64,000 nucleotides of DNA from Alphaproteobacteria bacterium (GCA_965220745.1 CBDCQT010000006.1:32001-96000), one strand, 5' to 3'; counted from the stretch's first letter, positions 2 to 48,651 are shown. Numbers and translations are program-made. Notes: generated from the sequence alone by a model not told the origin.

Positions 2-1160
2 CTCGCCGGGCGGTCGGAGGATGCGGCGGAATCCGGGCGGGGCGAGTCTCGGCTGCGCGGGGATCGCAGCTATCTGATCACGGGAGGGCTCGGGGGGCTC
101 GGGCTGGAGGTGGCGCGCTGGCTGGCCGGGGCCGGCGCCGGGGCCATCGTGCTGAACGGTCGCCGCCCGCCCGACACGGAAGCCGAGGCGCTGATCGCGG
201 AGCTCCGGCAGGGCAGCGCCGAGGTGCGCGTCGAGATCGCCGACGTGACGGACGAGGAGGCTGTGGCGGGAATGCTCGCGCGGATCGACGCCGAGCTGCC
301 GCCGCTGGCGGGCGTGATCCACAGCGTGGGAGCGCTTGCAGACGGGGCATTGACGAACCAGGACTGGGAGCGCTTCGAGCGTGTGCTGGGGCCCAAGGCG
401 CTGGGGGCCTGGCGCCTGCACCGGGCGACGCTCGACCGGCAGCTCGACCTGTTCGTCCTCTTCTCCAGCCTGGCGGGCGTGGTCGGAAACCGCGGGCAGG
501 CCAACTACGCGGCGGCCAACGCCTTTTTAGACCAGCTGGCGCGGCACCGAAGGGCGCTGGGCCTGCCGGGCCAGGCCATTGCCTGGGGGACGTGGTCAGG
601 CATCGGCGAGGCCGAGGAGCAGCGCGAGCGCATCACGCCGCGACTGGCCGACTCGGCCGAGGAGTGGATGACTCCCGAGCAGGGCATCCGTGTCTTGGCA
701 CGGCTCGTGCGCGAGGATGTCGGGACCAGCGTGGCGGCGTTCGTCGACTGGTCGGCGCTTCCGTCGCGGGCGCCTTGGCTCGCAGATGTGGCAGGGCGCG
801 AGGAGCGCCGCGCCCTCGCCGCTCCGGACGATCTCCTGAAGCGGCTGGGGGGGCTCGCCCCCGGAGAGCGCCGCGAAGAACTGATCCGGCTCCTCGGGGA
901 ACAGCTGGTCGAGGTCCTGCGCCTGCGTTCCGCGCCGGCGCCCTCGGCCGGATTCTTCGAGCTGGGCATGGACTCGCTGATGGCGGTCGAGCTTCGCAAC
1001 CGCCTGAACCGGGCCTTCCGCGGCGCGTTCGTCGTCTCCAACACCGCGCTGTTCGACCATCCCGACATCGCCCGCCTGGCGGAACACCTCGCCGGCAAGC
1101 TAGCCGACGCTGTACCGGAGGCACCGAGGCTGAGAGCCTTTCCCGCCGTCCGCGGCCGCA
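2..1160 (+). other. PKS module 0 (partial): KR(Tyr)-ACP
   Basis: ITGGLGGLG; GQANYAAAN (Tyr codon 506-508); GMDSL at ~964. Confidence 0.93.
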
Positions 1161-4100
1161 GCGACGAACGCATCGCGATCGTGGGCATGGCCTGCCGCTT
1201 CCCCGGGGCGGAGGATGCCGAGGCGTTCTGGGCCCAGCTTCGCTCTGGCGCCGACCTAGTGACGAGGGGGCGTCCGGACGGGCTCTTCGTGGATGCCGAG
1301 ACGCAGGCGGCGCGGCCCTTCGGCGCCTATGTGGAAGGCCTCGACCGCTTTGACGCAGGCTTCTTCCGGATCGCCCCGGTAGAGGCGGAGCTGCTGGATC
1401 CCCAGCAGCGGATGCTGCTCGAGACCAGCTGGGCGGCGCTAGAGGACGCCGGCATCGCCCCGGACGGGCTGCGCGGCAGCCGGACCGGGGTGTACGGCGG
1501 GGTCGCGACGAGCGATTACCAAGAACTCACCGCTAGGAGTGTGGATGATCCGTCGACCAACCTCTACAGGGCCACCGGGGCCACGCCCTCGGCCGCGGTC
1601 GGCCGAGTAGCGTTCGCGCTCGGCCTAGAGGGTCCGGCCATCACGGTGGACACCGCGTGTTCCTCGTCGCTGGTGGCGCTGCACCAAGCGGCGGGGGCAC
1701 TCCGCGCAGGCGAGGTGGACCTTGCGCTGGCGGGAGGAGTGAACGCAATCCTTACGTCGACCGTTACCCAGATCTTTACCGACGCCGGCATGCTCGCCGC
1801 GGACGGACGCTGCAAGACCTTCGACTCGGCAGCCGACGGCTATGTACGAGGCGAGGGATGCGGGATGGTTGTGCTCAAGCGCCTTGCGGACGCGGAGGCA
1901 GCCGGAGACCGGATTCTCGCGCTTGTACGCGGATCGGCGGTGAACCAAGACGGCGCGAGCGCCGGCTTCACAGTTCCGAATGGTCCGGCCCAAGAGCGGG
2001 TGATCGAGGAGGCGCTTGCGCGGGCGGGCGTCGAGGCCTCCTCGGTGGACTACTTGGAGGCGCACGGCACGGGCACCGAACTGGGCGATCCGGTCGAAGT
2101 GGAGGCAGCGGCGGCGGTGTACGGCCGCGGCCGGAGCCCAGACCGCCCACTGCTGATGGGATCGGTGAAGACGAACGTGGGCCACCTAGAGGCGGCAGCG
2201 GGGGTAGCCGGGCTGATCAAGGCGGTGCTCGCGATCCGCTCCGGGGTGATTCCGCGCCACCTGCACTTCGCGCGGCCCAACCCGCGGACGGACTGGGAGA
2301 AGCTCCCCGTCCGGGTGACGTCGGAGGCGACCCCGTGGCCGGAGGCCGAGCGGCCGCGACGGGCCGCCGTCAGCTCCTTCGGATACTCGGGCACCAACGC
2401 CCATGTCGTGATCGAGGGCTACGCCGAGGATCGCGAACCTCCGCACTTTGAGATCCTCGCACCGCCGGAGTTGGGTCTGGATGACAGTGTCCCGCAGGCC
2501 GACGCTTCCCGCCAGCACCGCCTGCTCCCGATCTCGGCGAAGTCCTATGACGCCCTCCGGCAGCTGGCTGGCCAGTACCGGGCCGGACTCGCGGACGTTA
2601 CCTCGCTCGCCGACATGGCGTGGACGGCGAGCACGGGCCGGAGCCATTTCCGCTGCCGCTCTGCTCTCGTGTTTGGCGATCGCGCCTCGCTGCAGGAGCA
2701 GTTGGAAGGGTTGAGGCAAGGCGCAGGGGCGTCGCCAGCCGAAGGAAAGGTCGCCTTCCTCTACACCGGGCAGGGGAGCCAGTGGGCGGGCATGGGCCGG
2801 GAGCTCTATGAGGCCGAGCCGGTGTTCCGGGCAGTTCTGGACCGTTGCGAGGAAGTGTTCCGCGCAGAGCACGGCAAGGCGCTTCTCCCGGTGATCTTCG
2901 AGGGTTCCGAGCGGCTGGACCGGACCGAGTGGACGCAGCCAGCGCTCTACGCGCTGGAGAGCGGGCTGACCGCGCTGTGGGCCAGCGTGGGGGTGCGGCC
3001 CGACATCGTGTTCGGGCACAGCGTGGGAGAGATCGCGGCAGCGGCAGCGGCGGGAGCCCTCGATCTCGAAAGCGGGATGCGGTTCGCAACGCGCCGGGGC
3101 GCGCTGATGGGTTCGCTCTCGGCGGCAGGCGCGATGGCGGCGGTGTTCGCTTCGGCGGAGCGGGTCGCTGCCAGCCTTGACGGTACGGTCTGCCTGGCAG
3201 CCGATAACGGCACGCACCAGGTCGTGAGCGGGCCGGAGGCCGATATCGAGGCGCTCCTGCAGACATTCGAAGAGGACGGTCTGCGCGTGGAGCGCCTACG
3301 GACCAGCCAGGCCTTCCACAGCGCGCTGATGGATCCGGTGCTGGCGGAGCTGGAAGCGGCGGCTCCCAGGGCCTCGGCACCGTCGGTGCGACTGGTAAGC
3401 GACGTGAGCGGGCAGGTGCTGGAAGGGGCTCCCGACGGAGCGTATTGGCGGCGCCAGGCGCGCGAGCCGGTCCAGTTCGCGACAGCGCTGAGGACGCTGG
3501 CGGACCTGCAGGCGGGGCTGCTGCTGGAGATCGGGCCGCATGGCGTGCTGGGCCCGATGGCGGCGCTGGGCTGGCCGCGCAGCGAGGCACCCACGGTGAT
3601 CCCGAGCCAGCAGCGCGGCGGGAACGGGGACTTCGTCGGGGCGGTGGCGGGCGCGTACGAGGCGGGTCTGGAGATTGCCTTTGAGGGCCTGTTTGTCGGA
3701 GAGCGGCGGCGGCGGGTCTCGCTGCCGGCCTATCCCTTCCAGCGGGAGCGCTATTGGGTCTCTGCCTCTGCGCGACGCCGGTCAGATGAGGGGCACGTGC
3801 TGCTCGGCGTGCAGCGGGATTCCCCGGATGGCGAGCATTCCTTCGAGAGGCAGCTAGACAGTCGGGATCCGGCTTGGCTGGCCGACCACCGGGTGTTCGG
3901 CGAAGTCGTAGCGCCGGGTGCCCTCTACGCGGCGCAGGTGGTTGAAGCGCTCCGAGAGACACACCACGAACTTCCCGTCGTCCTTGAGGAGACCGCAATC
4001 ACGCGCCCGCTGGTGTTGTCGGGCGAGGAAGGCCGGCTGGTTCAAGTGGTGCTCGGCGAGGACAGCGCTTGGAAGGTCGTCAGCAAGGATGCGGGCGGGC

Positions 4101-7100
4101 AATGGGAGACACATGCCGCAGGCCGCTGGGCACCCCTCCCCACAACTGCATCCGACCGGGCAGATCTCCCTGAGCTGCAGGTCGGCCTTACCCAAGTGGA
4201 TGTGAAGGGCAAGTACCTCGAGCAAAAGCGGGATGGCACCGGTCTCGACTACGGGCCGGCCTTTCGCGGTCTGGCCCGGCTCTGGTCGGGCTCCGGCGAG
4301 GCACTGGGCGAGGTGCTGCTGCCGGCGGGAATGGAAAATCGGGTGCTGCTTGTCCATCCGGCACTGCTCGACGCCTGTTTCCAAGGGGTGGGTGGCATCG
4401 CCAAGCTGGCCGAAGCAGAGGGCACGTGGCTGCCGATCGGCTGGGACCGCTTCGTCTTGCACGGTGCGCTGCCGGATCGCGTCTTCTGCCGGGCACTCGA
4501 CCGCAGCGAGGGCGCGGGGACGCTCAGGGCCGATCTCTGGCTCTACACGGACACGGGCGAGGAACTGGCCCGCATCGAGGGCTTCGCGCTCAAACGCGTG
4601 AGCCAGAGCACCCTGCCGGGTGGGCGGGTCGAGGAGGCTCTCCACGAGGTGGTGTGGCGCGAAGGGGCGGCGGTGGGACTTTGGGAGGCAGACTTCCTCG
4701 CCGGGCCACGGGAGATCGAATCCGGCCTGGGAACGCTGGACGGATACCTTGAGGCGGAGGGCCGCGACGGGGCGTCGCTCGCAGCCCTGGGGCGGGAGCT
4801 GGAGCTTGAATCCCGTCGGGCGCTGCTGCGCGGATTCCGGGAGCTGGGGTGGGCGCCTAGCGCGGGGGACCGTTTCGAGACGGACCAGCTGCGCCGCCAG
4901 CTCAGGGTGACGGAGGATCACGGGCGGCTGTTCGGCCGCTTGCTGTCGGTACTGGAGGAGATGGGGCTCCTCGCCCGGGAGCCGGCTGGCGGCTGGCATG
5001 TTGCAACCGTGCCGGAAGCACCCCCAGAGCCCGAGGCGGCGCCGACCGACTCCGCAGCCGATTCCATCGAGCTGGGCCTGCTCCGCCGCTGCGGGGAGTC
5101 GCTCGCCGACGTGCTCCGCGGCCGCGCTGATGCGCTGGACCTGCTCTTCGGCGGAGAACCGGGAGCGGCGAGCCTGTACCGCGAGTCGGCCTCCGTGCGG
5201 GCGGTGAACCGCATGGCCGCCGACGGCTTGCGCGCGGCGGTCGCCGGGCTGCCCGAAGGCCGGCCGCTACGGGTGATCGAGGTCGGCGCGGGGACGGGCG
5301 CTACCACCGCCGCCCTCTTGGACGTCCTACCAACCGACCGGACCGAATACACCTTCACCGACATCTCGACCGGCTTCTTCGCGGACGCAAAGCGGGAATT
5401 CGGCGAGCGGGGCGCGGGCCTCCGATTGCGGGCGCTCGACATCGAACAGGATCCGGCGGATCAGGGGTTCGCTCCCCACGGCTACGACCTCGTGATCGCC
5501 GCGAACGTCTTGCACGCGACCCGAGACCTAGGTGAGACGCTCGCTCACTGCCGGCGCCTCCTGGCCCCGTCGGGCGTGCTGTTGGCCGTCGAGGAAACCA
5601 CTCGCAAGGAGTGGCTGGACCTAACCTTCGGACTGCTGCCCGGCTGGTGGCGCTTCCAAGACGCGTATCGCTCCGACTACACGCTGGTCGGGCCGCCCGT
5701 CTGGGAGCAGGCACTCGCGGACGCGGGATTTGCGGAAACGGCCCTGATCGAGGATCCAGCAGGAGCACTCCTGATCTTGGCGCGGGGGCCGTCGGAGGTG
5801 GAGACCGAAGGCGGGCTGTTCGTGCTGGCCGGAGAAGGCAAGCTGGGCACCGAGCTGGCGGCGGAGCTAGATCGCCGGGGCAGCCGAGCGATCCAGGGAC
5901 CTGCAGAGGCCGGCCGCAAGGCATGGCGCGGGTTCTTCGAGTCATTGCCCGGTGTACTTCCGCTGCGGGGAGTCGTTTATTTGGGCGGGGTGCGACGAGA
6001 CGGGCAGGGGCTGTCCGCGAGCGAGCTGCAGGCAGATCTGGAGGCGGCGGATGCGGGCGCGCTGGCGCTAGTCCAAGGGATGTCGGACGCTGGCGTGTCG
6101 CCGGTCAGCGGCACTTGGTTCGTGACCCGGGGCGGCCAAGTGATCGAGCGGGAGCGCTGCGGCGCACTCGTGGGGGCCTCGTTGTGGGGCTTCGCGAGCG
6201 TGGTGGACCTAGAGCACGGGGATCTGATGCCGCGCCTGCTGGACTTGGATCCCGAATCTCCTCCATCTGCTGGCACGGTTGCCGACGAAGTGCTCTTCCC
6301 TGACCGCGAAACACGCATCGCCCGCCGGGGCGGGCACCGCTTGGTGGCCCGGCTGACACGCCTCGCCGGGCGGGCGGGGGATTCGGCGGATCCCGGCCCG
6401 GGCGAGGCCCGGCTGCGCGGGGACCGCAGCTATCTGATCACGGGAGGGCTCGGGGGGCTCGGGCTGGAGGTGGCGCGCTGGCTCGCCGGGGCGGGAGCCG
6501 GGGCCATCGTGCTGAACGGACGCCGACCACCCGATGCGGAAGCCGAGGCGCTGATCGTCGAGCTCCGGGGGGGCAGCGCCGCGGTGCGCGTCGAGATCGC
6601 CGACGTGACCGACGGGGAGGCGCTGGCGGGTATGCTCGCACGGATCGACGCCGAGCTGCCGCCGCTGGCAGGCGTGATCCACAGCGTGGGCGCGCTCGCC
6701 GACGCGGCCTTGACGAACCAAGACTGGGAGCGCTTCGAGCAGGTGCTCGGGCCCAAGGCGCTGGGGGCCTGGCGGCTGCACCGGGCGACGCTCGACCGGC
6801 AGCTCGACCTGTTCGTTCTCTTCTCTAGCGTGGCGGGCGTTGTCGGGAGTCCGGGCCAGGCCAACCACGCGGCGGCCAACGCCTTCCTAGACCAGCTGGC
6901 GCGGCACCGGAGGGCGCTGGGCCTGCCGGGTCAGGCCATTGCATGGGGAGCGTGGTCGGGCATTGGCGAGGCCGAGGAGCAGCGCGAGCGCATCGCGTCA
7001 CGGCTCGCCAGATCGGGCGAGCGGTGGATGTCTCCCGAGCAGGGCATCGGTGCCTTGGCGCGGCTCGTGCGCGAGGACGTCGGAACCAGCGTGGCGGCGT

Positions 7101-10100
7101 TCGTCGACTGGTCGGCGCTCCCGGTCAGCGCACCTTGGCTGGCAGAGGTGCTGGAACGAGAGGAGGATCGCGCCATCGCCGATACAGAAGACTGGCAGCC
7201 GGGTCGGGCCGACGGCGAACTCTTGGGACACCTCCGCGGACTCGCCCATGGGAAGCGCCGGGAAGAACTGGTCCGGTTCCTCGGCGGACAGCTGGTCCAG
7301 ATCCTGCGCCTGCGCTCCGCGCCGCCGTCCGCGGCTGGATTCTTCGAGCTGGGCATGGACTCGCTGATGGCGGTCGAGCTTCGCAACCGCCTGAACCGGG
7401 CCTTCCGCGGTGCATTTGTCGTCTCCAACACCGCGGTCTTCGACCATCCCGATATCGCCCGCCTGGCGGAGCACCTTGCCGGCAAGATCGTTGGCGTGGC
7501 CCCAGAGGTGCCGCAGGTGCCAGGTTTGCCCGCTGTCCGGCGCTGGGACGACGACCGCATCGCGATCGTCGGCATGGCCTGCCGCTTCCCCGGAGCCGAG
7601 GATGCCGAGGCGTTCTGGGCGCAGCTTCGCTCCGGGGCCTATCTGGTGACGAGGGGGCGTCCGGACGGGCTCTTCGTGGATGCCGAGACAGAAGCGGCGC
7701 GCCCCTTCGGTGCGTATGTGGAAGGCCTCGACCGCTTCGACGCCGGCTTTTTCCGGATTGCCCCGGTCGAGGCCGAACTCCTCGACCCCCAGCAGCGGAT
7801 GCTGCTCGAGACAAGCTGGGCGGCCCTCGAGAACGCCGGGATCGCCCCGGACGAACTGCGCGGCAGCCGGTCCGGGGTGTACGGCGGGATATCGATGAAC
7901 GATTACCAGACGCTGGTCGCCAATCTGGGCGACGATCCGTCGAACGATATCTACAGGTCTACCGGCATCGCCGCCTCGACGGCGATCGGCCGGATCGCAT
8001 TCACGCTTGGCCTCGAGGGTCCAGCCATCAGCGTCGACACCGCATGTTCCTCGTCGCTGGTCGCGCTGCATCAAGCGGCAGCCGCGCTGCGCGCAGGCGA
8101 GGCGGATCTGGCGCTGGCAGGAGGCGTGAACGCGATCTTGACCTCAACCGCCACACGGATCTTCACCGACGCAGGCATGCTCGCCGCCGATGGACGCTGC
8201 AAGACCTTTGACGCGGCAGCAGACGGATTCGTACGGGGCGAGGGATGCGGGATGGTTGTGCTCAAGCGCCTTGCGGACGCGGAGGCGGCAGGGGACCGGA
8301 TCCTCGCGGTTGTGATCGGATCGGCCGTGAACCAAGACGGCGCCAGCGCCGGCCTGACCGTGCCGAACGGCCCGGCCCAAGAGCGCGTGATCGAAGAGGC
8401 GCTCGCACGGGCGGGCGTCGAGGCCTCGTCGGTCGACTACTTGGAGGCGCACGGCACGGGCACCGAGCTGGGCGATCCGGTCGAGGTGGAGGCGGCGGCT
8501 GCGGTGTACGGCCGCGGCCGGAGCGCGGACCGCCCGCTGCTGATCGGGTCGGTGAAGACGAACGTAGGCCACCTCGAGGCGGCGGCGGGCGTGGCCGGGC
8601 TGATCAAGGCGGTGCTCGCGATCCGTTCCGGGGTGATTCCGCGCCACCTGCACTTCGAACGTCCGAACCCGCGGATGGACTGGGAGCAGCTCCCCGTCCG
8701 GGTGACATTGGAGGCGACGCCTTGGCCGGAGGCGGAGCGGCCGCGGCGGGCCGCCGTCAGTTCCTTCGGGATCTCGGGCACCAACGCTCACGTCGTGATT
8801 GAGGGATACGCGGAGGAGCGCGAGCCGCCGCGCATCGAGCTGCCCGCACTGCCGGAGGCGGGTGCGGATGACCGCGTCCCGCAGGCCAACGCGCCCCGCC
8901 TGCACCGCTTGCTCCCGCTGTCGGCGAAGACCGAGGACGCGCTCCGACAGCTAGCCAGCCGGTACCGGGCCACGCTTTCGGACGACACACCGCTCGCTGA
9001 CATCGCATGGACGGCGAGCGCGGGCCGGAGCCATTTCCGCTTTCGCTCCGGTCTCGTGTTCAGCGATCGCGCCTCGCTGCAGGAGCAGTTGGAGGTAATA
9101 AGCCAAGGAGTCGTGGCGTCGCCGACGACAGGAACGGTCGCGTTCCTTTACACCGGGCAGGGGAGCCAGTGGGCGGGCATGGGCCGGGAGCTCTATGAGG
9201 CCGAGCCGGTCTTCCGGGCGGTCTTGGACCGGTGCGAGGAAGCGTTCCGCGCAGAGCGCGGCCGGGCGCTTCTCCCGGTGATCTTCGACGATGCCGGGCG
9301 GCTGGACCGGACCGAGTGGACCCAGCCGGCGCTGTACGCGCTGGAGAGCGGGCTGACCGCGCTGTGGGCAAGCGTGGGGGTGCGGCCCGACATCGTGTTC
9401 GGGCACAGCGTGGGAGAGATCGCGGCCGCCGCGGCCGCCGGCGCCTTTGATCTCGAGACCGGGATGCGGTTCGCCACGCGCCGGGGCGCGCTGATGGGTT
9501 CGCTCTCGGTGGCAGGCGCGATGGCGGCGGTGTTCGCTTCGGCGGAGCGGGTCGCTGCCAGCCTTGACGGTGCGGTGTGTCTGGCGGCCGATAACGGCAC
9601 GCACCAGGTCGTGAGCGGGCCGGCGGCCGATATCGAAACGCTGCTGAAGAGGTTCGAAGAGGACGGTCTGCGCGTGGAGCGCCTGCGGACCAGCCAGGCC
9701 TTCCACAGCGCGCTGATGGATCCGGTGCTGGCGGAGCTGGAAGCGGCGGCGCCCGCGGCCTCGGCACCGTCGGTGCGACTGGTGAGCGATGTGAGCGGGC
9801 AGGTGCTGGAAGGGGCTCCCGAGGGAGCGTACTGGCGGCGCCAGGCGCGCGAGCCGGTCCAGTTCGCGACGGCGCTGCGGACGCTGGCAGAGTTGCAGGC
9901 GGGGCTGCTGCTGGAAATCGGGCCGCATGGCGTGCTGGGCCCGATGGCGGCGCTGGGCTGGCCGCACGGGGAGGCGCCCACGGTGATCCCGAGCCAGCGG
10001 CGCGGGGGGAACGGGGACTTCGTCGAGGCGGTGGCGGGCGCGTACGAGGCGGGTCTGGAGATTGACTTCGAGGGCCTGTTTGCCGGAGAGCGGCGGCGGC

Positions 10101-13100
10101 GGGTCGCGCTGCCGGCCTATCCGTTCCAGCGCGAGCGCTACTGGATCTCCGCCTCTGACCGCCGTCGGGCAGAGGCGGGGCACGCGCTGCTCGGGGTGCG
10201 GCGGGATTCCCCGGATGGCGAGCATTCCTTCGAGCGGCAGCTGGACAGCCGGGATCCGGCTTGGCTGGCAGACCACCGGGTGTTCGGGAAGGTCGTGGCG
10301 CCGGGAGCGCTGTATGCGGCGCAGGTGGTTGAGGCGCTTCGCGAAACGCACCCTGGAGTCGGGGTCGTGCTCGAGGAGAGCGCGATCACGCGCCCGCTGG
10401 TGCTGGCGGGCGAGGAGGGCCGGCTGGTTCAGGTGGTGCTGGGCGAGCACGGGGGCTGGAAGGTCGTTAGCAGGGCTGCTGCCGGGCCATGGGAGACGCA
10501 TGCCGAAGGCCGCTGGGCACCGCTCGAAGCAGCCGCATCCGAGTCGGCAGACCTCGGCGCTATGAAATCTGGCCGTGCGCAGGCGGACATGGATGGGGGG
10601 GATCTTGAGCTGGGCCTAGGTGCCACCGGAATCGAATACGGGCCGGCGTTCGGCGGACTGGCCCGGCTGTGGTCGGGCTCGGGCGAGGTGCTGGGCGAGG
10701 TGCTGCTGCCGCCGGGAATGGAAAAGCAGGGGCTGCTCGTGCATCCGGCACTGCTCGACGCCTGTTTCCAAGTGCTGGGGGGGATCCCGGAACTGGACGG
10801 AGCCGGAGGCACATGGCTGCCGATCGGCTGGAGCCGTTTCGCCCTGCGCGAAGCCCTGCCGGATCGCGTCTTCTGCCGGGCAGTCGACCGGGGCGAGGTC
10901 AGCCAGACGCGCAAGGCCGATTTCTGGCTCTACACCGATAGGGGCGAGGAGCTGGCGCACATCGAGGGCTTCGCGCTCAGACGCGCGAGCCGGACGGCCC
11001 TGTCGGGCGGCCGGGTAGAGGAGGCGCTGCACGAGGTGGTGTGGCGCGAAGGGGCCTCAGTGGGACTGCGGCAGGCGGACTTCTTGGCAGCGCCGCAGCA
11101 GATCGAATCCGGCTTGGCAGCGCCGGACCGATACCTAGAGGCACAGGGCCGAGACAGGGCCTCACTGACCGAGCTGGGGCGCGAGCTGGAGCGCGAGGCA
11201 CGCCGGCTGCTGCTGCGCGGATTCCGGCACCTCGGATGGGAGCCCGTGCCGGGAGACCGTTTCGAGACGGACGAGTTGCGCCGACGCCTGAGGGTGACCG
11301 GGGATCACGGGCGGCTCTTCGTCCGGTTGCTGTCGGTGCTGGAGGATATGGATCTCCTCGATCGGGAGCCGGCTGGCGGCTGGCGCGTGGCAATCGCTCC
11401 GGAAGCGCTGGCGGAGCCCGAGGTGGGACCGGCCGGCCCCCAAGCCGAATCCCCCGAGCTGGACGTGCTCCGGCGCTGCGGGGATTCGCTCGCCGATGTG
11501 CTCCGCGGCCGCGCCGATGCCGTGGACCTGCTCTTCGGCGGCGAGCCGGGAGCGGCGAGCCTGTACCGCGAGTCGGTCCTAGCGCGGGCAGTGAACCAAA
11601 TGGTCGCCGATGCCGTGCGCACAGCGGTCGCCGGGCTGCCGGAAGACCGGCCGCTGCGGGTGATCGAGGTCGGCGCGGGGACCGGCGCGACCACCGCCGC
11701 CCTCTTGGACGTCCTGCCGGCCGACCGGACTGAATACACCTTCACCGATATCTCGACCGGATTCTTCCCCGATGCGGAGCGGGAGTTCGGCGAGCGGGGC
11801 GCCGACCTTCGCTTCCTGGCGCTCGACATCGAACGGGACCCGGCGGATCAGGGCTTCGCGCTCCACGGCTACGACCTCGTGATCGCCGCGAACGTCCTGC
11901 ACGCTACCCGCGACCTAGGTCAGACGCTCGCAAACTGCCGACGCCTCCTAGCCCCGTCGGGCGTGCTGGCGGCCGTCGAGGAGACTGCCCGCAAGGAGTG
12001 GCTGGACCTGACCTTCGGACTGCTATCCGGCTGGTGGCGCTTCCAAGACGCGTATCGGTCCGACTACGCGCTGGTCGGACCCTCCGTCTGGCGGCAGGCT
12101 CTCGCGGACGCCGGATTTGTCGGGCCCTCGTTGGTCGAGGATCCCTCCGGGGCGCTGCTGATCCTGGCGCGGGGGCCGTCGGAGGTGGGGGCCGAAGGCG
12201 GGCTGTTCGTGCTGGCCGGGGAGAGCGAGCTGGGTGCCGAGCTAGCGGCGGAGCTGGATCGCCGGGGCAGCCGGGCTGTCAAAGGCCCCGCGGGGGGCGA
12301 CCGGCAGCAGTGGCGCCGTTTCTTCGAGTCATTGCCGGGTGCGCTGCCCCTGCGCGGCGTGGCGTATCTGGGCGGGCTCCGGCCAGATGGTGCCGGGCTT
12401 TCGACCCAGGAGCTGGAAGTGGAGCTGGAGGCGGTGAATGCGGGCGCGCTGGCGCTGGTCCAAGGGATGTCGGACGCGGGCGTGTCGCCGATGAACGGCA
12501 CTTGGTTCGTGACCCGGGGCGGCCAGGTGATCGAGCGGGAGCGCTGCGGCGCGCTCGCGGGTGCCTCGCTGTGGGGCTTGGCCAGCGTGGTGGACTTGGA
12601 GTACGGGGATCTAACGCCGCGCCTGCTGGATCTGGATCCCGAGTCTCCGCCGTCCGCCGGCACGCTTGCGGAGGAGCTGCTCTTCCCCGACCGCGAGACG
12701 CGCGTCGCCCTGCGAGGCGGGGCGCGACTGGTCGCCCGGCTGACGCGCCTGGCCGACTGGCCGAAGGGTCCGGTGGAATCCGGCCCGGGCGAGGCGCGGC
12801 TGCGCGGGGACCGCAGCTATCTGATCACGGGAGGGCTCGGCGGGCTCGGGCTGGAGGTGGCGCGCTGGCTGGCCGGGGCGGGCGCCGGGGCCATCGTGCT
12901 GAACGGACGCCGCCCGCCCGACACGGAGACCGAGGCTCTGATCGCGGACCTCCGACAGGGCAGCGCCGAGGTGCGCGTCGAGATCGCCGACGTCACGGAC
13001 GAGGAGGCGGTGGCGGGGATGCTCGGGCGCATCGACGCCGAACTACCGCCGCTTGCAGGCGTGATCCACAGCGTGGGTACGCTCGCCGACGCGGCCCTGA

Positions 13101-34100: not shown

Positions 34101-37100
34101 CGATCCGTTCCGGGGTGATTCCGCGCCACCTGCACTTCAAGCGGCCCAACCCGCGGACGGACTGGGAGAACCTTCCGGTCCGAGTGACATCGGAGCCGAC
34201 TCCTTGGCCGGAGGCGGAGCGGCCGCGGCGAGCCGCCGTCAGTTCGTTCGGATACTCGGGCACCAACGCCCACGTCGTGATCGAGGGATACGCCGAGGAG
34301 CGCGAACCGCCGCGCATCGAGCTGCCCGCGCCGCCGGAGTCGGGTGCGGATGACCGCGTCCCGCAGGCCGAGGCTCCCCGCCAGCATCGCCTGCTCCCGC
34401 TGTCCGCCAAATCCGAGGGAGCGCTTCGTCAGCTGGCCGGCCGCTACCAAGCCGCCCTCTCGGAAGACATGCCGCTCGCCGACATGGCGTGGACGGCGGG
34501 GGTGGGGCGGAGCCATTTCCGCTACCGCGCCGGCCTCGTGTTCCAAGACCGGGCCTCGCTGGCGGAGCAGCTGGAGGTGGTGAGGCAGGGTGCCGCGGTG
34601 TCGCCTCCCGCTGGAAAGATCGCCTTCCTTTACACCGGCCAGGGCAGCCAGTGGGCGGGCATGGGTCGGGACCTCTATGAGACCGAGCCGGTCTTCCGGG
34701 CAGTTCTGGAGCGGTGCGAGGAGGTCTTCCGAGCAGAGCGCGGCAGATCGCTTCTAACAGTGATCTTCGAGGATGCCGGGCGGCTGGACTGCACCGAGTG
34801 GACGCAGCCTGCGCTCTACGCGCTGGAGAGCGGGCTGACGGCGTTGTGGGCCAGCGTGGGAGTGCGGCCCGATGTCGTGTTCGGGCACAGCGTGGGAGAG
34901 ATCGCGGCCGCCGCGGCCGCCGGTGCCTTTGATCTCGAGAGCGGGATGCGGTTCGCCACGCGCCGGGGGGCGCTGATGGGTTCGCTTCCCGATGGAGGTG
35001 CGATGGCGGCAGTGTTCGCCTCGCGCGACCGCGTCACAGCCGCGCTGGAAGGTGCGGTGTCGCTGGCAGCGGACAACGGCGCGCACCAAGTCGTGAGCGG
35101 GCCGGAGGCCGACATCGAGGCGCTCCTGAAGCGCTTCGAAGAGGACGGACTGCGAGTGGAGCGTCTGCGGACCAGCCACGCCTTCCACAGCGAACTGATG
35201 GAGCCGGTGCTGGCGGAACTGGAAGCAACGGCCCCCAGTGCCTCGGCACCGTCGGTGCGGTTAGTGAGCAATCTGAGCGGGAGGACGCTGGAAGGCGTCC
35301 CCGACGGAGCCTACTGGCGGCGGCAGGCGCGCGAGCCAGTACAGTTCGCGACGGCGGTGGGGACGCTGGCGGAACTGGAGACAGCGCTTCTGCTGGAGAT
35401 CGGGCCGCATGGCGTGCTGGGGCCGATGGCGGCGCTCGCTTGGCCACAGGCCAAGGTACCCTCCATGGTTCCGAGCCAACGGCGCGACGGGAATGGGGAC
35501 TTTGCCCGCGCGGTGGCAGCTGCATACGAGGCGGGTCTCGACATTGCCTTCGATGGCCTGTTTGTCGGGGAGCGGCGGCGGCGGGTCTCGCTGCCCGCCT
35601 ATCCCTTCCAGCGGGAGCGTTACTGGACCTCGGCTTCCCCGCAGCGGCAGTTGGAGGCGGGGCATGCGCTGCTCGGCGTGCAGCGAGATTTCCCGGATGG
35701 CGAGCACTCCTTCGAGCGGCAGCTGCACAGCCGGGATCCGGCTTGGCTGGCAGACCACCGGGTGTTCGGAAACGTTGTAGCGCCGAGTGCGCTTTACGTC
35801 GCGCAGGTGGCCGAGGCGCTTCGCGAAACGCACCACGAACTTCCGATCGTCCTCGAGGAGACCACGCTCACGCGACCGCTGGTGCTGTCGGGCGAGGAGG
35901 GCCGACTGACTCAGGTGATGCTCGGCGGGGACGGCGCTTGGAAGGTCGTCAGCAGGGATGCGGGCGGGCGATGGGAAAAGCACGCCGAAGGCCGCTGGGC
36001 ACCGCTCACCGCAGCCGCGTCCGCGGCAACGGACCTCGGCGCGCTACGGGACGGCCTCGCCCAGGCGGATGTGGAAGAGGGATACCTCAAGCTGGGTGCT
36101 GCCGGCCTCGAATACGGTCCGGCCTTCCGCGGTCTGACCCGGCTCTGGTCGGGCTCCGGCGAGGTGCTGGGCGAGGTGCTGCTGCCAGCGGGAATGGAAA
36201 TTCAGGACCTGCTCGCGCATCCGGCTCTGCTCGACGCCTGTTTCCGGGTGCTGGGTACCACGACCACGGAACTGCACGGAGCCGGGGACACATGGCTGCC
36301 GATCGGCTGGGAGCGCTTCGTCCTGCGCGACGCGCTGCCGGAGCGCGTCTTCTGCCGGGCACTCGACCGCGGCAAGGGCGAGCAGCCACGCACACGCAAG
36401 GCAGACCTCTGGCTTTATGCCGAGACCGGCGAGGAGCTGGCGCGTATCGAGGGCTTCGCGCTCAGACAGGCGAGCCAGTCGGCGCTGTCGGGTGACCCGG
36501 TAGAGGAGGTGCTGCACGAGGTGGTGTGGCGCGAGGGGGCAGAGGCCGGACTTCGGGAGGCGGAATTCCTCGCCGGACCGGAAGAGATCGCTTCCGGTCT
36601 GGGAGGGTTGGACAGATACCTCGACGCGGAAGGTCGCAACGGTGCGTCTCTCTTCTCCCTAGGACACGAGCTGGAGCGTGCGTCGCAGTGGCAGCTGCTG
36701 AGCGGATTCCGGGAGCTGGGATGGGAGCCTAAGCCGGGAGACCGTTTCGAGACCGACGAGTTGCGCCGCCAGCTGAGGGTGACGGAGGATCACGCGCGGC
36801 TGTTCGTCCGGTTGCTATCGGTGCTGGAGGAGATGGGGCTCCTCGACCGGGAGCCGACTGGCGGCTGGCGCGTGGCAGCGGCACCGGACACGCCTTCCGA
36901 GCCCGAGGCGGGACTGGCCGATTCCATCGAGCTGGGCTTGCTCCGCCGCTGCGGGGAATCGCTCGCCGACGTGCTCCGCGGGCGCGCCGATGCGCTGGAC
37001 TTGCTCTTCGGCGGCGAGCCCGGAGCGGCGAGCCTGTACCGCGACTCGCCCGCCATGCGGGCGCTGAACCGCATGGCCGCCGACGCCGTGCGCGCGGCGG

Positions 37101-40100
37101 TCGCCGCGCTGCCGGAAGGCCGGTCGCTGCGGGTGATCGAGGTCGGTGCAGGGACGGGCGCGACCACCTCCGCCGTCCTAGACATCCTGCCGTCCGACCG
37201 AACCGAATACACCTTCACGGACATCTCGACCGGCTTCTTCCCGGACGCGGAGCGGAAGTTCGGCGAGCGGGGCGTGGACCTTCGCCTCCTAGCGCTTGAC
37301 ATCGAACGGGATCCGGCGGATCAGGGGTTCGCGCACCACGGCTACGACCTCGTAATTGCCGCGAACGTCCTGCACGCGACCCGCGACTTAGCTGAAACGC
37401 TCACCCACTGTCGGCGGCTCTTGGCCCCGTCGGGCGTACTGGTGGCCGTCGAGGAAACCGTCCGGAAGCAATGGCTGGACCTGACCTTCGGACTGCTGCC
37501 CGGCTGGTGGCGCTTCCGGGACGAGTATCGCTCCGACTACGCACTGGTCCCAGCCCCTGTCTGGCACCAAGCCCTCGCCGACACCGGATTCGTCGGGATG
37601 TCTCACGTCGAGCTTCCGTCAGGGGCGCTCCTGCTCTTGGCGCGGGGGCCGTCGGAGGTGCAGGCTAGACCGGGTCGTTTTGTGCTGGCTGGAGCGGGAG
37701 CATTCCCCGAAGCACTCGAGAGAGAACTCCGCGAGCGGGGACAGGATGTGGTGCCGGGCCCGGCGGATGGGCGACGGACGTCATGGCGATCGTTCTTCAG
37801 GACGCTGGACGGCGAGGTGCCGCTGTGGGGCGTGGTGCATTTGGAAGGCATGCGGCGAGATGCGGCGAAGCTTTCGACCGCAGATCTGGCAGGGGACGCG
37901 GAGGAGATCGGGGCGAGCGCTCTGGCGCTGGTCCAAGGCATGTCGGACGCCGGCGCGGCACCCGTGAACGGCACTTGGTTCGTGACCCGAGGTGGTCAGG
38001 TGATCGACCGGGAGCGCTCCGGCGCCCTCCCCGGAGCCATGCTCTGGGGCTTCGCGAGCGTGGTGGACTTGGAGCATGGGGATCTGACCCCCCGCCTGCT
38101 GGACCTGGACCCCGAGGCCCCCCCGTCCGCCAGCGCGCTGGCCGACGAGTTGCTCTTCCCGGACCGGGAGACGCGCGTCGCCCGACGGGGCGGAGCCCGA
38201 CTGGTCGCTCGGCTCACGCGCGTCGCCCGACGGGGCGAACTCCCGGAGGACAATGCGTGGCGCTGGGCGGCCGATCCGGATGGAGTACTCGACGCGGTGC
38301 GAATGGAGGATGCCTCGGAGGAGCCTGGTCCAGGCGAGGTTCGGGTGCGGCTCGAGGCGGCCGGGGTGAACTTCCACGACGTAATGGTGGGGATGCAGGT
38401 CGTGGACGCCGATCAGCGGCTTGGCAGCGAGTTGTGTGGCCGGGTGGTGGAGGCAGGTGAAGGTGTGCGCGAATTCCAAGCAGGGGACCGGGTGGTGGGA
38501 TTCGCCGGCGGAGCGTTCGGGCCCGAGGTGATCACCCGCGCCGAACACGTGGTGCCGTCACCGCCAAGGCATTCGGCGGCGGAGTTGGCAACCATCCCGG
38601 TGGCATTCGTGACCGCAGCACTTGCCTTCGAGCATTCGGGTCTCGGAACGGGCGCACGGATTCTGATCCATGCGGGAACGGGAGGCGTGGGTCACGCGGC
38701 GATCCGGCTGGCACGAGCTGCGGGACTCGAGGTGTACGCGACTGCCAGCGCACCGAAGCAGGAGTACCTGCGCTCGCTCGGTGTGCAGGCGGTGTTCGAC
38801 AGCCGCTCCACCGCCTTCGGCAAGCAGATCTTGGAAGCGACCGGAGGAGCCGGAGTGGCGATGGTGCTGAACAGCCTCTCCGGGGAGGGTTTCATTGAGG
38901 CCAGCCTGTCGTGTCTCGCGCCAGGCGGATGCTTCGTCGAACTCGGGAAGCGCAACATCCGCAGCGCAGGCGAGATGGCGGCCGACCGCCCGGACGTCCG
39001 TTACCTCGTCGTGGCGCTGGACCGGCTCCTGCGGGAGGAACCGGAGCGGCTCGGGACAGTTCTGAAGGGCGTGATGGAGCGCGTCGCGTCGGGGGAGATC
39101 GAACCGCTGCCAGTCACCCGCTGGCCGCTCGCGGAGGCGGGCAGCGCGCTCACCGAGTTGCAGGCGGCTCGCCATATCGGGAAGGTCGTGCTCGTGCCCT
39201 CGGCGCTGGCTGCGGGCCGGCTGCGCGGGGACCGGAGCTATCTGATCACGGGGGGGCTCGGAGGGCTCGGGCTGGAGGTGGCGCGCTGGCTTGCCGCAGC
39301 CGGAGCGGGGAGCATTGTCCTGAACGGACGCCGTCCGCCGGACACGGCAGCCGCAGGTGCCGTTGCGAAGCTGCGTGAGGGCGGTGCCGAGGTGCGCGTG
39401 GAGATCGCCGACGTGACGGACGAGGAGGCGGTGGCGGAGATGCTCGCGCGGATCGACGCCGAGCTGCCGCCGCTGGCGGGCGTGATCCACAGCGTGGGAG
39501 CGCTCGCCGACGCGGCCTTGACGAACCAAGACTGGGAGCGCTTCGAACGCGTGCTCGGGCCCAAAGCACTGGGGGCTTGGCGACTGCACCGCGCGACGCT
39601 CGACCGGGAGCTCGATCTGTTCGTCCTCTTCTCCAGCCTGGCGGGCGTGGTCGGGAGCCCGGGCCAAGCCAATCACGCGGCAGCCAACGCCTTCCTCGAC
39701 CAGCTGGCGCGGCACCGAAGGGCGCTGGGCCTGCCGGGTCAGGCCGTTGCGTGGGGACCGTGGTCGGGCATCGGCGAGGCCGAGGAGCAGCGCGAACGGA
39801 TCGCGGCGGGGCTCCCCCTCCACGGCGAGGAGTGGATCGCTCCCGAGCAGGGCATCCTCGCTTTGGCACGGCTCGTGCGCGAGGACGTCGGAACCAGTGT
39901 GGTGGCGTCCGTCGATTGGCCCACGCTCTCGGCGCGAGCACCTTGGCTCGCAGAAGTGCAGGGATCCTCGGAGATCCGCTCCTCCGGAGATCCGGAGGAC
40001 CTGATACGCCAGCTCCGGGGACTCGCGCCCGGGGAACGCCGGGAAGAACTGATCCGGTTCCTGCAAGAACAACTGGTCCAGATCCTGCGCCTGCGCTCGG

Positions 40101-43100
40101 CCCCGTCGCCCTCGGCGGGATTCTTCGAGCTGGGCATGGACTCGCTGATGGCGGTCGAGCTTCGCAACCGCCTGAACCGGGCCTTCCGCGGCGCGTTCGT
40201 CGTCTCCAACACCGCGGTCTTCGATCATCCCGACATCGCCCGTCTGGCCGAACACCTTGCAGGCAAGCTTCCCGGTGCGTCACCGGAGCCAGCGCGGGTG
40301 CGGGCCTTGCCCGCCGTCCGCCACCAACACGACAAACGTATCGCGATCATCGGCATGGCCTGCCGCTTCCCCGGGGCACCGGATGCCGAGGCGTTCTGGA
40401 AGCAGCTTCGCGCCGGAGCTGATTTGGTGACGAGGGGGCGTCCAGACGGGCTTTTCGTGGATGCCGAGACAGAAGCGGCCCGCCACTTCGGCGCGTATGT
40501 GGAGGGTCTCGACCGCTTCGACGCGGGGTTTTTCCGGATCGCCCCGGTCGAGGTGGAACTGCTAGACCCCCAGCAGCGGATGCTGCTCGAGACAAGCTGG
40601 ACGGCACTTGAGGACGCCGGGATCGCGCCGGACGGTCTGCGCGGCAGCCGAACGGGGGTCTACGGCGGGATCTCGACAAACGATTTTCACGCGCTCGTCA
40701 GCCAGACGGTTGGTGATCCGTCGACGATCCTCTACAGGTCCACCGGTGTCTCCTTCTCGACCGCGATCGGCCGGATCGCCTTCGCGCTCGGCCTCGAGGG
40801 TCCTGCCATCACGGTGGACACCGCGTGCTCGTCGTCGCTGGTCGCGCTGCATCAGGCGGCGGCGGCGCTCCGCGCAGGCGAGGCGGATCTCGCGCTGGCA
40901 GGCGGAGTGAACGCGATCCTGACGTCGAGCGCCACCAGGATCTTCACTGAGGCCGGCATGCTCGCCGCGGATGGACGTTGCAAGACCTTCGACGCGGCGG
41001 CCGACGGCTTTGTGCGCGGCGAGGGATGCGGCATGGTTGTGCTGAAGCGCCTTGCAGACGCGGAGGCGGCGGGAGACCGGATCCTCGCGGTTGTGCTCGG
41101 ATCGGCTGTGAACCAAGACGGCGCGAGTGCCGGCCTGACCGTGCCGAACGGCCCGGCCCAGGAGCGGGTGATCGAGGAGGCGCTTGTGCGGGCGGGCATC
41201 GAGGCCTCCTCGGTGGACTATCTGGAGGCGCACGGCACGGGCACCGAACTGGGCGATCCGATCGAGGTGGAGGCGGCGGCTGCCGTGTACGGCCGCGACC
41301 GGGATCTGAACCGCCCCCTGCTGATCGGGTCCGTGAAGACGAACGTGGGCCACTTGGAGGCTGCGTCCGGCGTGGCCGGGCTGATCAAGACGGTGCTCGC
41401 GATCCGCTCTGGCCTGATTCCGCGACACCTACACTTCGAGCGGCCCAACCCCCAGATGGACTGGGAGCAACTTCCTGTCCGGGTGACGTCGGAACCGACC
41501 CCCTGGCCGGAGGCCGAGCGGCTGCGGCGGGCCGCCGTCAGCTCCTTCGGGTACTCGGGCACCAACGCCCATGTCGTGATCGAGGGATACGCCGAAGAGC
41601 GCGAGCCGCCCCGCATCGAGCTGCCCGCGCTGCCGGAGTCGGGTGCAGATGACCGCGTCCCGCAGGCCGACGCGCCCCGCCAGCATCGGCTGCTCCCGCT
41701 CTCGGCGAAGTCCGAGGGCGCGCTTCGTCAGCTGGCCGGCCGCTATCGAGCCGCCCTCTCGGAAGACATGCCGCTCGCCGACATGGCCTGGACAGCGGGG
41801 GTGGGGCGGAGCCATTTCCGCTACCGCTCCGGCCTCGTATTCCAAGACCGGGCCTCGCTGGCAGAGCAGCTGGAAGTGGTGAGCCAGGGGGCCGCGGCGT
41901 CGCCCAGCGCGGGAAGGGTCGCCTTCCTTTACACCGGCCAGGGCAGCCAGTGGGCGGGCATGGGCCGGGAGCTTTATGCGACCGAGCCGGTCTTCCGAGC
42001 GGTTCTAGACCGGTGCGAAGAGGTCTTCCGAGCAGAGCGCGGCAGATCTCTTCTCACCGTGATCTTCGAGGATTCCGAGCGGCTGGAGCGGACCGAATGG
42101 ACGCAGCCGGCACTCTACGCGCTGGAGAGCGGGCTTACGGCTTTGTGGGCCAGCGTCGGGGTGCAGCCCGATGTCGTGTTCGGGCACAGCGTGGGAGAGA
42201 TCGCGGCGGCCGCGGCCGCCGGTGCCTTTGACCTCGAGACCGGGATGCGGTTCGCCACGCGCCGGAGCGCGCTGATGGGTTCGCTTCCCGATGGAGGTGC
42301 GATGGCGGCGGTGTTCGCCACGCGCGACCGCGTCACAGCCGCGCTGGAAGGTGCGGTGTCGCTGGCAGCGGACAACGGCGCGCACCAAGTCGTGAGCGGG
42401 CCGGCGGCCGACATCGAGGCGCTCCTGAAGCGCTTCGAAAAGGACGGTCTGCGAGTGGAGCGACTGCGGACCAGCCACGCCTTCCACAGCGCGCTGATGG
42501 AGCCAGTGCTGGCGGATCTGGAAGCGGCGACCCCCAAGGCCTCGGCCCCATCGGTGCGGTTGGTGAGCGATGTGAGCGGGCGCGTGCTGGAAGGCGCACC
42601 CGACGGAGCGTACTGGCGGCGTCAGGCGCGCGAGCCGGTCGCCTTCGCCGCCTCGACCGCAACGCTGGCGGAACTCGGAGCCCGGATCTTGGTTGAGATC
42701 GGCCCCGACGCCGTGCTTGGGCCGATGGCGGCGATGACGTGGCCCGAGGGCGAATCCCCAACGGTGGTGCGGAGCCTGCGACGGGATGGCAGCGGGGACT
42801 TCACTGCCGCGGCGGGCGCGATGTTTGAGGCCGGAGTCGACCTTTCCTTCGAGGGACTGTTCGCCGGAGAACGCCGCCGCCGAGTGGCACTCCCAACCTA
42901 TCCCTTCCAGCGCAGGCGCTACTGGTTGACAACGCCGTCCCGCCGCCGGATCGACGACGGTCATCCGCTGTTGGGTGTGCGCCGGGATTCGCGAAGCGGC
43001 GAGGTCTCCTTCGAGACCCAGATGTCCGCCGGGAACCCCGCCTGGCTGGCGGACTACGTAGTCGTGGGCGAAGTGATCGCGCCGGCAGCCCTGTTCGCTG

Positions 43101-48169: not shown

Positions 48170-48651
48170 GCGGAGTGCCTGCACAAGAAAGACCCCGGGG
48201 ATTCGAGCGCTTCGCACGCGCCAACCCGCCTCCGTCACCATCCGCGGGGACGCCATCGAGATCCGGCTCGGCTACCGAGTTCACGATTTCCTCCTCCGCG
48301 CCGACGGGTTCGACCGCAAGCAGTCCCGCACCCCGGCTCGGAACCCGCAAGCTCCGTTTGGTCGTCCGATACCACGCCCGCTGGCAGTCTCCGTCAGCCA
48401 CCTCCGCGCCCCGGACTCCGCCTGTCGACTCCACCCGCTCCCTGGCGCTAGAATGTCACTTCACGAACTCACCGTGGGTGTTCAGGCTGGACTCCAGCGT
48501 CTCCATTCGGAACGCGTGGACGCCCTGCCGGCGGCTCGCGCTGCTTGCATGTCAGGCAGCTGTGCGGCACACTGCCCGTCGAGCGCAGGGTGGGACCAAC
48601 GACCAGCGGTCGCCCCGCTGCACCCACCGAGATCCGGGGACGAGCCCAACG

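Follow-up and report, generated by a model that had tools for sequence, protein, structure and literature searches.

Three ketosynthase (KS) residues in a giant polyketide synthase (PKS) match the ketoreductase (KR) type of the module upstream in all seven KSs encoded within a 64,000-nucleotide stretch of DNA from an Alphaproteobacteria bacterium (GCA_965220745.1, CBDCQT010000006.1:32001-96000; hereafter, the window). The match is real, yet it is local to the window. With a probability of roughly 0.65, it stems from common descent at each module position rather than from a code by which the KS reads methylation. The initial annotation had proposed exactly such a code: the KS would be a gatekeeper for alpha-methylation, and its residues would report the activity of the C-methyltransferase (cMT) upstream. 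If true, this would be a useful rule for product prediction and engineering, but it does not hold, and we regard the proposal as very improbable.

In the account that we favor, the giant PKS would have grown by tandem amplification of its modules, and intragenic gene conversion would keep most of each module similar to its paralogues. The variable core of the KS, of which the three sites would be part, would resist conversion; each module position would thus carry its own version of the core, the same one as in a collinear PKS from another metagenome-assembled genome (MAG), and selection would keep it there. KS sites would match the KR and cMT state upstream because both are position-specific and inherited together. 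At least five classes of KS core would map, many-to-many, onto two module types, and the seven-of-seven match would be the known co-migration of KSs with their upstream domains, seen in a small sample.

The gene and its three sites

An open reading frame (ORF) scan of the window, which covers bases 32001-96000 of its contig (C6), finds a single frame whose 5' end is open. This is the 3' part of an ORF that remains open up to contig base 1 (C6:1-80169) and encodes at least 26,722 aa and 12 full modules. Modules are numbered -4 to 0 upstream of the window and 1 to 7 within it, and KSn comes after module n-1. Pfam and motif scans give the module order KS-acyltransferase (AT)-dehydratase (DH)-cMT-(enoylreductase, ER)-KR-acyl carrier protein (ACP), at ~2,120-2,130 residues per module, and in the modules scanned, the Pfam order places the processing domains between AT and ACP. 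The hallmarks of a cis-AT modular type I PKS (the KS Cys in DTACSS, GHSxG in the AT, and DSL in the ACP) are present in 12/12 modules. Module 6 has an additional ER with an intact GGVGHAA motif, module 7 is without a cMT in the Pfam scan, and the protein ends in KS8 and a truncated AT. Modules 1-6 are 79-86% identical to one another at the protein level.

The features on which the argument depends are given below in window coordinates. The KR residue was read at the catalytic position in GQAN-Y/H-AAAN: Tyr in KR0, 3, 4, and 7, and His in KR1, 2, 5, and 6. Site 1 is the residue before D-Y and the last of four loop positions (p1-4), site 2 is the residue before [LI][YF]R, and site 3 is the Y/F of ADG[Y/F]VRG.

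2..48169 (+): giant PKS ORF, 3' part, open 5' end, KS-AT-DH-cMT-(ER)-KR-ACP modules
1172..2416 (+): KS1, after module 0 (Tyr-KR, TGFF); loop p1-4 VATS at 1502-1513; site codons 1511 (S), 1559 (N), 1841 (Y)
7559..8803 (+): KS2, after module 1 (His-KR, TGFF); loop p1-4 ISMN; site codons 7898 (N), 7946 (D), 8228 (F)
13946..15190 (+): KS3, after module 2 (His-KR, TGFF); loop p1-4 VWMI at 14276-14287; site codons 14285 (I), 14333 (D), 14615 (F)
20333..21577 (+): KS4, after module 3 (Tyr-KR, TDSF); loop p1-4 FMAS; site codons 20672 (S), 20720 (N), 21002 (Y)
26687..27931 (+): KS5, after module 4 (Tyr-KR, TDSF); loop p1-4 VSMS; site codons 27026 (S), 27074 (N), 27356 (Y)
33041..34285 (+): KS6, after module 5 (His-KR, PGFF); loop p1-4 VSMI; site codons 33380 (I), 33428 (D), 33710 (F)
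40340..41584 (+): KS7, after module 6 (His-KR, TGFF, ER); loop p1-4 ISTN; site codons 40679 (N), 40727 (I), 41009 (F)
506..508 (+): KR0 catalytic-position codon, Tyr (TAC)
6866..6868 (+): KR1 catalytic-position codon, His (CAC)
13253..13255 (+): KR2 catalytic-position codon, His
19667..19669 (+): KR3 catalytic-position codon, Tyr
26018..26020 (+): KR4 catalytic-position codon, Tyr
32375..32377 (+): KR5 catalytic-position codon, His
39674..39676 (+): KR6 catalytic-position codon, His; module with ER
44999..45001 (+): KR7 catalytic-position codon, Tyr; module without cMT, DH His replaced by Tyr
5369..5380 (+): cMT1 motif TDIS-TGFF
11756..11767 (+): cMT2 motif TDIS-TGFF
18146..18157 (+): cMT3 motif TDIS-TDSF (variant)
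24521..24532 (+): cMT4 motif TDIS-TDSF (variant)
30878..30889 (+): cMT5 motif TDIS-PGFF
37229..37240 (+): cMT6 motif TDIS-TGFF

Within the window, the pattern is as initially annotated. The site 3 codons lie exactly at 1841, 21002, and 27356 (Tyr) and at 8228, 14615, 33710, and 41009 (Phe), and all three sites split KS1-7 by upstream KR type without exception (7/7). Site 1 is S in KS1, 4, and 5, and N, I, I, and N in KS2, 3, 6, and 7; site 2 is N in the first group, and D, D, D, and I in the second. Canonical cMT motifs (TDIS-TGFF or -PGFF) are found in modules 1, 2, 5, and 6, and the TDIS-TDSF variant in modules 3 and 4.

This perfect split speaks for a code for alpha-methylation, and so does the AT motif. 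Every AT of the giant PKS carries the xAFH motif, which we take to indicate malonyl units; by that rule, any methyl branches would come from the cMTs only. At alignment column 784, we read this motif as HAFH in modules -4, -1, 0, 3, 4, 6, and 7; as QAFH in modules -2, 1, 2, and 5, each of which has a His-KR and a canonical cMT; and as HGFH in module -3.

The seven KSs had been described as otherwise almost identical. In fact, KS1-7 are 85-95% identical (mean 89%), and 102 of the 415 columns in their alignment vary. Five of these columns separate {1,4,5} from {2,3,6,7}, but eight separate {2,4,7} from the rest, and five each do so for {1,2,7} and {1,3,6}. Because at least three separating columns are reached by 8 of the 35 possible three-versus-four splits, three concordant sites in the window are not beyond what the mosaic gives. 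That figure also favors a neutral coincidence, in which the three sites vary freely and the match is sampling luck among many variable columns, an explanation we take up with the collinear PKS below.

Upstream junctions of the same gene

The remainder of the ORF adds four KR-ACP-KS junctions to the seven in the window. The initial annotation had predicted that the cMT of module 0, which lies upstream of the window, would be variant or absent, and it had named a canonical motif beforehand as evidence against the code. The motif found there is the canonical TDIS-TGFF, together with a Tyr-KR.

The earlier junctions are no kinder to the rule. Giving sites 1, 2, and 3 in order, the KS after module -4 (SAFF, ER, Tyr-KR) has H/N/F, the one after module -3 (TDSV, Tyr-KR) has N/T/Y, the one after module -2 (PGFF, His-KR) has H/N/Y, and the one after module -1 (TGFF, His-KR, DH His replaced by Phe) has G/N/Y. 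The relation of ADG-Y/F to KR type is thus broken at three of the four added junctions (after modules -4, -2, and -1), and a binary three-residue code does not extend to them. N and Y following the canonical cMTs of modules -2 and -1 also contradict a report on methylation. At these upstream junctions, the three sites are not coupled even among themselves.

When all 11 junctions are considered, 125 KS columns vary, and not one of them divides the KSs by the KR type upstream or by the cMT type. Y/F matches the KR type at 8/11 (Fisher p = 0.24), and against cMT type the value is p = 0.18. There is no evidence that the KS states read alpha-methylation. Two other candidate rules were compared with the junction table and set aside: that the KS class is set by the two preceding modules (no consistent mapping when checked by hand) and that the KS sites track their own module rather than the one upstream (no pattern).

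Probable gene conversion and the KS variable core

Along each module, the nearest paralogue switches many times, the signature of repeated gene conversion. The segments of such a mosaic can be followed by comparing module -2 and KS-1 with module 5 and KS6, for which nucleotide (nt) identity is as follows.

cMT: 93%
psiKR: 96%
KR: 97%
KR-ACP: 94%
ACP-linker: 98%
first 100 KS residues: 97%
KS variable core: 78%
KS C-terminal part: 89%

A single 30-codon window at the loop falls to 57%. Modules -2 and 5 are therefore near-identical His-KR/GFF modules that precede KSs unlike at all three sites (H/N/Y vs I/D/F). The variable core, taken as approximately KS residues 100-230, comprises the dimer-interface loop p1-4 with the next loop, the helix leading up to the active-site Cys, the NAIL...TD loop downstream of that Cys, and the residue that follows ADG.

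Divergence in the KS is also concentrated. Nonsynonymous divergence (pN) peaks at KS columns 180-220 and 260-280 (0.33, 0.14, and 0.17) and is ≤0.07 in all other windows of columns 80-480; in the two windows at the edges, 60-80 and 480-500, part of which is flanking linker, it reaches 0.11 and 0.14. Synonymous divergence is likewise highest at the loop (0.58 vs about 0.25-0.4). Such localized divergence puts the three sites in an island that escapes homogenization, and not in a copied KR-ACP-KS block.

Block copying of KR-ACP-KS had been named from the outset as an alternative to the code. One part of it stands, as near-identity runs through the KR and ACP into the first ~100 KS residues; the other does not, as the tracts end just before the three sites. 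We rejected block copying as the full answer, since 97-98% nt identity over the KR, linker, and KS N-terminus falls to 78% where the sites are.

The cores have closer relatives elsewhere than in their own gene. For KS-2, -1, 0, 1, 2, 4, and 5, the best foreign core is 88-95% identical at the amino acid level, as against 81-88% for the best paralogue within the giant PKS.

A collinear PKS in another MAG

The most informative of the foreign PKSs is on OZ224030.1, from another MAG, where the spacing of ACP sites matches that of the giant PKS from module -4 to module 5. Eight units were compared, modules -3, 1, and 2 being left out (two coverage gaps). In seven of the eight, the KS core is nearer to its OZ224030.1 counterpart (90-94% nt) than to any paralogue in its own gene (81-91%), while for the linker, KS N-terminus, psiKR, KR, and ACP, an own paralogue is often the nearer one. 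Loop p1-4 is the same at 7/8 positions (ISTN, VCGH, ISTG, VWMI, FMAS, VSMS, and VSMI), and the variable helices and loops that flank it match as well.

The markers on which the code depends are less faithful. The cMT motif of module 0 is TGFF here and RDSF in OZ224030.1, and the next KS is of the VATS class in both. The KR of module -4 is Tyr here and His there. KS4, preceded in both lines by a Tyr-KR module of one type (TDSF/TDLF), has ADG-Y in the giant PKS and ADG-F in OZ224030.1.

The VATS case can be argued in two ways. That the OZ224030.1 module before this KS has a variant (RDSF) cMT is what a code for alpha-methylation would lead one to expect; that KS1 keeps its class in spite of the TGFF and RDSF counterparts is not. 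Around the motif, module 0 is 79% identical to its OZ224030.1 counterpart and 89% to module -1 of its own gene. These values fit a conversion tract that would have overwritten the motif, and this may be why the module 0 prediction fails here but would hold in OZ224030.1.

Neutral coincidence can be weighed at this point. It draws on the Y/F site, which toggles between the collinear KS4 counterparts and also inside one family-wide KS class (xxxH; seven F, six Y). Set against it are the identity of p1-4 at seven of eight collinear positions while the flanks are homogenized, and the sharp localization of pN. A conserved loop, homogenized flanks, and localized pN together require selection on the core as a whole, although the Y/F site taken singly may be nearly neutral. 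We judge it improbable that chance covers all three sites.

Junctions across the family

The comparison was extended to 55 loci (L011-L065) in species-representative genomes, all of the same repetitive PKS family and 60-91% identical in amino acids over KR-ACP-KS. Their MAG records are named Bryobacterales, Acidobacteriota/Acidobacteria, Terriglobia, Vicinamibacteria, Rhodothermales, Longimicrobiales, and Gemmatimonadetes, and one Rhodothermales record holds two clusters of the family. With 62 foreign and 11 own junctions, the set comprises 73, of which one with a Cys-KR was excluded from the Tyr/His counts, leaving 72.

The full three-site rule is obeyed at 30/72 junctions, or 23/61 of the foreign ones. 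ADG-Y follows a Tyr-KR 23 times and a His-KR 20 times, and ADG-F follows them 6 and 23 times; sorted by methyltransferase, ADG-Y comes after canonical cMTs 20 times and after D-variant cMTs 20 times. Site 2, scored as Asn or non-Asn, gives p = 0.14 against KR type over the 72 junctions with kinship ignored. In 19 pairs, the cores are at least 88% identical and the upstream KR residue is unlike. One pair with 100%-identical cores, both from the same MAG, stands after a TDIA-TDSF/Tyr module in one case and a TDMS-PAFF/His module in the other. With low obedience and identical cores after opposite module types, the claim that the three residues discriminate alpha-methylated from unmethylated chains is not supported.

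Kinship among these junctions is heavy. The 72-tip KS tree has only 10 changes in the KR label upstream, 13 in ADG-Y/F, and 12 in p4. Pairs that are phylogenetically independent and unlike in upstream KR number 6 on well-supported branches and 10 on all branches. Of the 6 pairs, 1.7 show the change in ADG-Y/F that the rule predicts, 1.0 show the reverse, and 3.3 show none; for p4, the corresponding values are 0.7, 1.0, and 4.2.

Variable cores were clustered at 88% identity into classes, named here by loop p1-4.

VSM[IL]: 13 members; upstream His 12, Tyr 1; ADG followed by F in 12
xxxH: 13 members; upstream His 10, Tyr 3; ADG followed by F in 7, Y in 6
FMAS: 8 members; upstream Tyr 7, His 1
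VS[ML]S: 8 members; upstream Tyr 8
VATS/VSTS: 3 members; upstream Tyr 3
ISTG (two clusters): 5 members; upstream His 5

The KS class goes with the upstream module type, with several classes per type. The 10 KR-label changes on the tree and the near-uniform clusters thus bear out the premise that the KS core travels with the type of module upstream of it.

A looser form of coupling would preserve some function for the pattern. Some KS-core classes would gatekeep the outcome of beta-processing upstream, Tyr-KR modules being partnered by the Ser class and His-KR modules by the I/L + D/E + F class, and other classes would be tuned to distal features of the chain. Ser at p4 (n=29) occurs after a Tyr-KR 21 times, a His-KR 7 times, and a Cys-KR once; I/L at p4 follows a His-KR at 14/15 junctions, as does D/E at site 2 (14/15); and KR0 and KR5 with KS1 and KS6 behave accordingly. 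These counts, however, are dominated by counterpart or paralogous copies from a few assembly lines, and the independent pairs give no signal. The 19 pairs of cores described above, with their one 100% pair, likewise tell against it. Such coupling further presumes that the products of Tyr- and His-KRs differ, and the His-KRs keep their other motifs, sit in ER modules, and are conserved genus-wide. We consider it unlikely.

Several points nevertheless weigh against shared descent as the whole explanation. With kinship ignored, ADG-Y/F is associated with KR type over the 72 junctions (Fisher p = 0.007), and p4 still more so, with Ser after a Tyr-KR at 21/29 and non-Ser after a His-KR at 36/43 (p = 2e-6, kinship again ignored). 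KR0 and KR5 are unlike at just 3 of 190 aligned residues, one of which is the catalytic position (Tyr vs His), and KS1 and KS6 downstream of them differ at the three sites just as a code would predict. The independent-pairs test has little power, with 6-10 pairs, and the trait columns were kept in the tree. The sample, too, is a selected one: foreign loci were found by two KR peptide patterns, as the best 80 of 100 matches, and of the 91 KR-ACP-KS junctions parsed, 14 incomplete ones were dropped, leaving 77 and, after removal of duplicates, the 62 unique ones. Genuine functional coupling is possible for some KS classes. Finally, we infer that the acyl tunnel would be lined by the core, and that the core would adapt each KS to the chain it receives (in length and in its pattern from alpha to delta) rather than solely to alpha-methylation.

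The occurrence of the family in orders of different phyla suggests horizontal spread of a very large PKS gene, given that no orthologue of the giant PKS was found in the 20 same-genus genomes searched, where the nearest match is a two-KS PKS that is 61-64% identical. A literature search by the order names of the carrier MAGs found no paper on this PKS family.

Location of the sites and published gatekeeping

Aligned to DEBS KS5 (2HG4), in which the active Cys is 199, the three sites fall at V152, L166, and F260. For DEBS KS3, index arithmetic that assumes no gaps in short stretches gives F156 for site 1 and F263 for site 3; site 2 has its alignment to DEBS KS5 L166 only, in a gap-containing loop. 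Site 1 would be position 4 of the published dimer-interface gatekeeping loop, a placement that depends in part on our assumption that the motifs VMYH and TNGQ stand directly before D-Y. From the alignment, it is plausible that sites 1 and 3 are specificity positions, and two of the three sites falling at known tunnel or active-site positions would be in keeping with a code for alpha-methylation. So placed, these two would not be remote from the substrate tunnel, whereas remoteness had been named in the initial annotation as evidence against its code. Loop p1-4 reads VYSH, VCSH, ISTN, VCGH, ISTG, VATS, ISMN, VWMI, FMAS, VSMS, VSMI, and ISTN from KS-4 to KS7; neither VMYH nor TNGQ occurs at these positions in any of the 12 KSs of the giant PKS.

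Both the co-migration of KSs and the presence of gatekeeping loops in them are already published, and a three-residue code is unsupported. A survey of 739 actinomycete KSs considered 32 tunnel positions (Hirsch, Fitzgerald, and Keatinge-Clay 2021, ACS Chem Biol 16:2515, via PMC11321453). Tunnel residues correlate with upstream alpha/beta chemistry, loop positions 1-4 carry the most weight, and mutation of loop positions alters selectivity (Ray et al. 2024, PMC11321453). In the same source, DEBS KS3 A154 is loop position 2, VMYH is found after DH modules, and TNGQ after modules that leave a D-beta-hydroxyl. KS gatekeeping can also reach beyond the beta-position (PMC11294587). Both the selection for beta-chemistry by loop positions 1-4 in actinomycete KSs (PMC11321453) and gatekeeping beyond the beta-position (PMC11294587) lend the looser coupling some credit.

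The present system resembles that of Hirsch 2021 in having putative tunnel residues correlated with upstream type, and site 1 would be their loop p4. Their motifs come from actinomycete KSs; here, the modules have in-line cMTs, which that survey and a GNN study largely passed over. A further difference from gatekeeping-motif systems is that our loop classes are not one-to-one with upstream type.

KS co-migration with upstream processing domains is also known as the "updated module boundary" (Zhang et al. 2017; Keatinge-Clay 2017; as cited in PMC11321453). In the giant-PKS family, too, KS relatedness goes with upstream module type. Unlike the updated module, however, the co-migrating unit here is not a contiguous block of DNA: the KR, ACP, and first ~100 KS residues are homogenized, and position specificity is retained only by the KS variable core and by isolated sites, the KR Tyr/His codon among them.

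The mycolactone and rapamycin synthases have tandem, highly alike modules comparable to those of the giant PKS. Mycolactone KSs are reported to be >97% identical despite unlike substrates, in contrast to 85-97% here, where a small number of loops hold the differences. In these two systems, relaxed gatekeeping has been linked to an aromatic residue at loop position 2 (PMC11321453; PMC11294587). Loop position 2 is aromatic in two KSs of the giant PKS, with Trp in KS3 and Tyr in KS-4.

Mutagenesis of DEBS KS3 covered A154, F156, F263, and F265 (10.1101/2023.02.16.528826; PMC7327777). According to the former (10.1101/2023.02.16.528826), F156 is near the polyketide chain and F263 borders the entrance to the active site; a broader substrate range is reported for the F263T and A154W mutants. 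Those mutants are engineered small residues, whereas the natural change at site 3 is only Tyr vs Phe and, unlike in the DEBS mutants, toggles between collinear counterparts without an upstream change.

For those interested in KS specificity, the practical benefit lies in the homogenized flanks, which expose the position-specific KS residues and so provide a short list of candidate specificity sites. These candidates fall in cis-AT modules with a cMT, which have largely been skipped in published surveys of KSs.

His-KRs, cMT variants, and DH domains

KR and cMT markers agree at 56 of the 64 junctions in the family at which both could be called: a His-KR goes with a canonical xGFF/xAFF cMT at 35 and a Tyr-KR with a D-variant (xDSF) at 21. 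The exceptions are Tyr-KR with a canonical motif (5), His-KR with a D-variant (2), and His-KR with no cMT motif found (1). With cMT type confounded in this way with KR type, the case for a code that reads methylation is weakened further. That proposal also presumes that the DSF cMTs are inactive. The active cMTs with solved structures share just the first Phe of the motif; this Phe, common to CurJ, DisA, and PsoF, is replaced by Ser in the TDSF of cMT3.

The His-KRs retain every other catalytic motif. That the His is a fresh knock-out is not favored, because it is kept in a genus-wide PKS and in ER-bearing modules. The genus-conserved PKS, which is the 61-64% identical two-KS match named above (~3,460 aa; KS-AT-DH-cMT-KR-ACP-KS-AT), has GQANH in 6/9 related loci, with no KR motif match in the other 3, and the module -4 counterpart on OZ224030.1, identified as ER-bearing by unit length, pairs a His-KR with an ER. 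A review notes in passing that the KR Tyr is "sometimes replaced by histidine." Against this dismissal of the knock-out, the catalytic His of the DH is lost in two His-KR modules: module -1 (LADF) and unit B6, module 6 of the OZ224030.1 PKS (His to Cys). It is also replaced in module 7 (LADY), which has a Tyr-KR and is without a cMT.

The genome's own copy of the genus-wide PKS is on another contig.

C5:214272-224651: genus-wide PKS, 3,459 aa, KR with GQANH

Its second KS gives no DTACSS match, and its second AT has GQGAGE instead of GHSxGE.

A tentative reading, one that we would not expect to prevail, is that there are two programmed module types, a canonical cMT with a His-KR and a D-variant cMT with a Tyr-KR. 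On that view, the His of the KR would mark a function under selection and linked to in-line C-methylation instead of a dead domain, and the KS cores would map chain recognition residue by residue. The reasoning is that gene conversion erases neutral differences between modules, so that the position-specific leftovers would be those held by selection. If this were true, the PKS family would be a natural experiment that isolates KS specificity determinants. The pairing of KR His with a canonical cMT is, in any case, a separate lead on the programming of methylation and reduction.

Completeness and neighborhood of the gene

The remainder of the giant gene was not found on the other 12 contigs, its own-genome matches being on C6, apart from the 3,459-aa PKS on C5 and weaker ones. 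As the ORF is cut by the contig start and the rest was not found on those contigs, the start of the assembly line is missing.

In the domain scan, four ORFs follow the PKS on its 3' side (window coordinates).

48175-49671: alpha/beta-hydrolase ORF
53965-55443: RVT_1 reverse transcriptase
55480-56892: MscS-type channel
57478-62736: 1,753-aa DEAD-box + UvrD helicase protein

The GC content is ~70% in the PKS vs ~64-65% in this downstream region.

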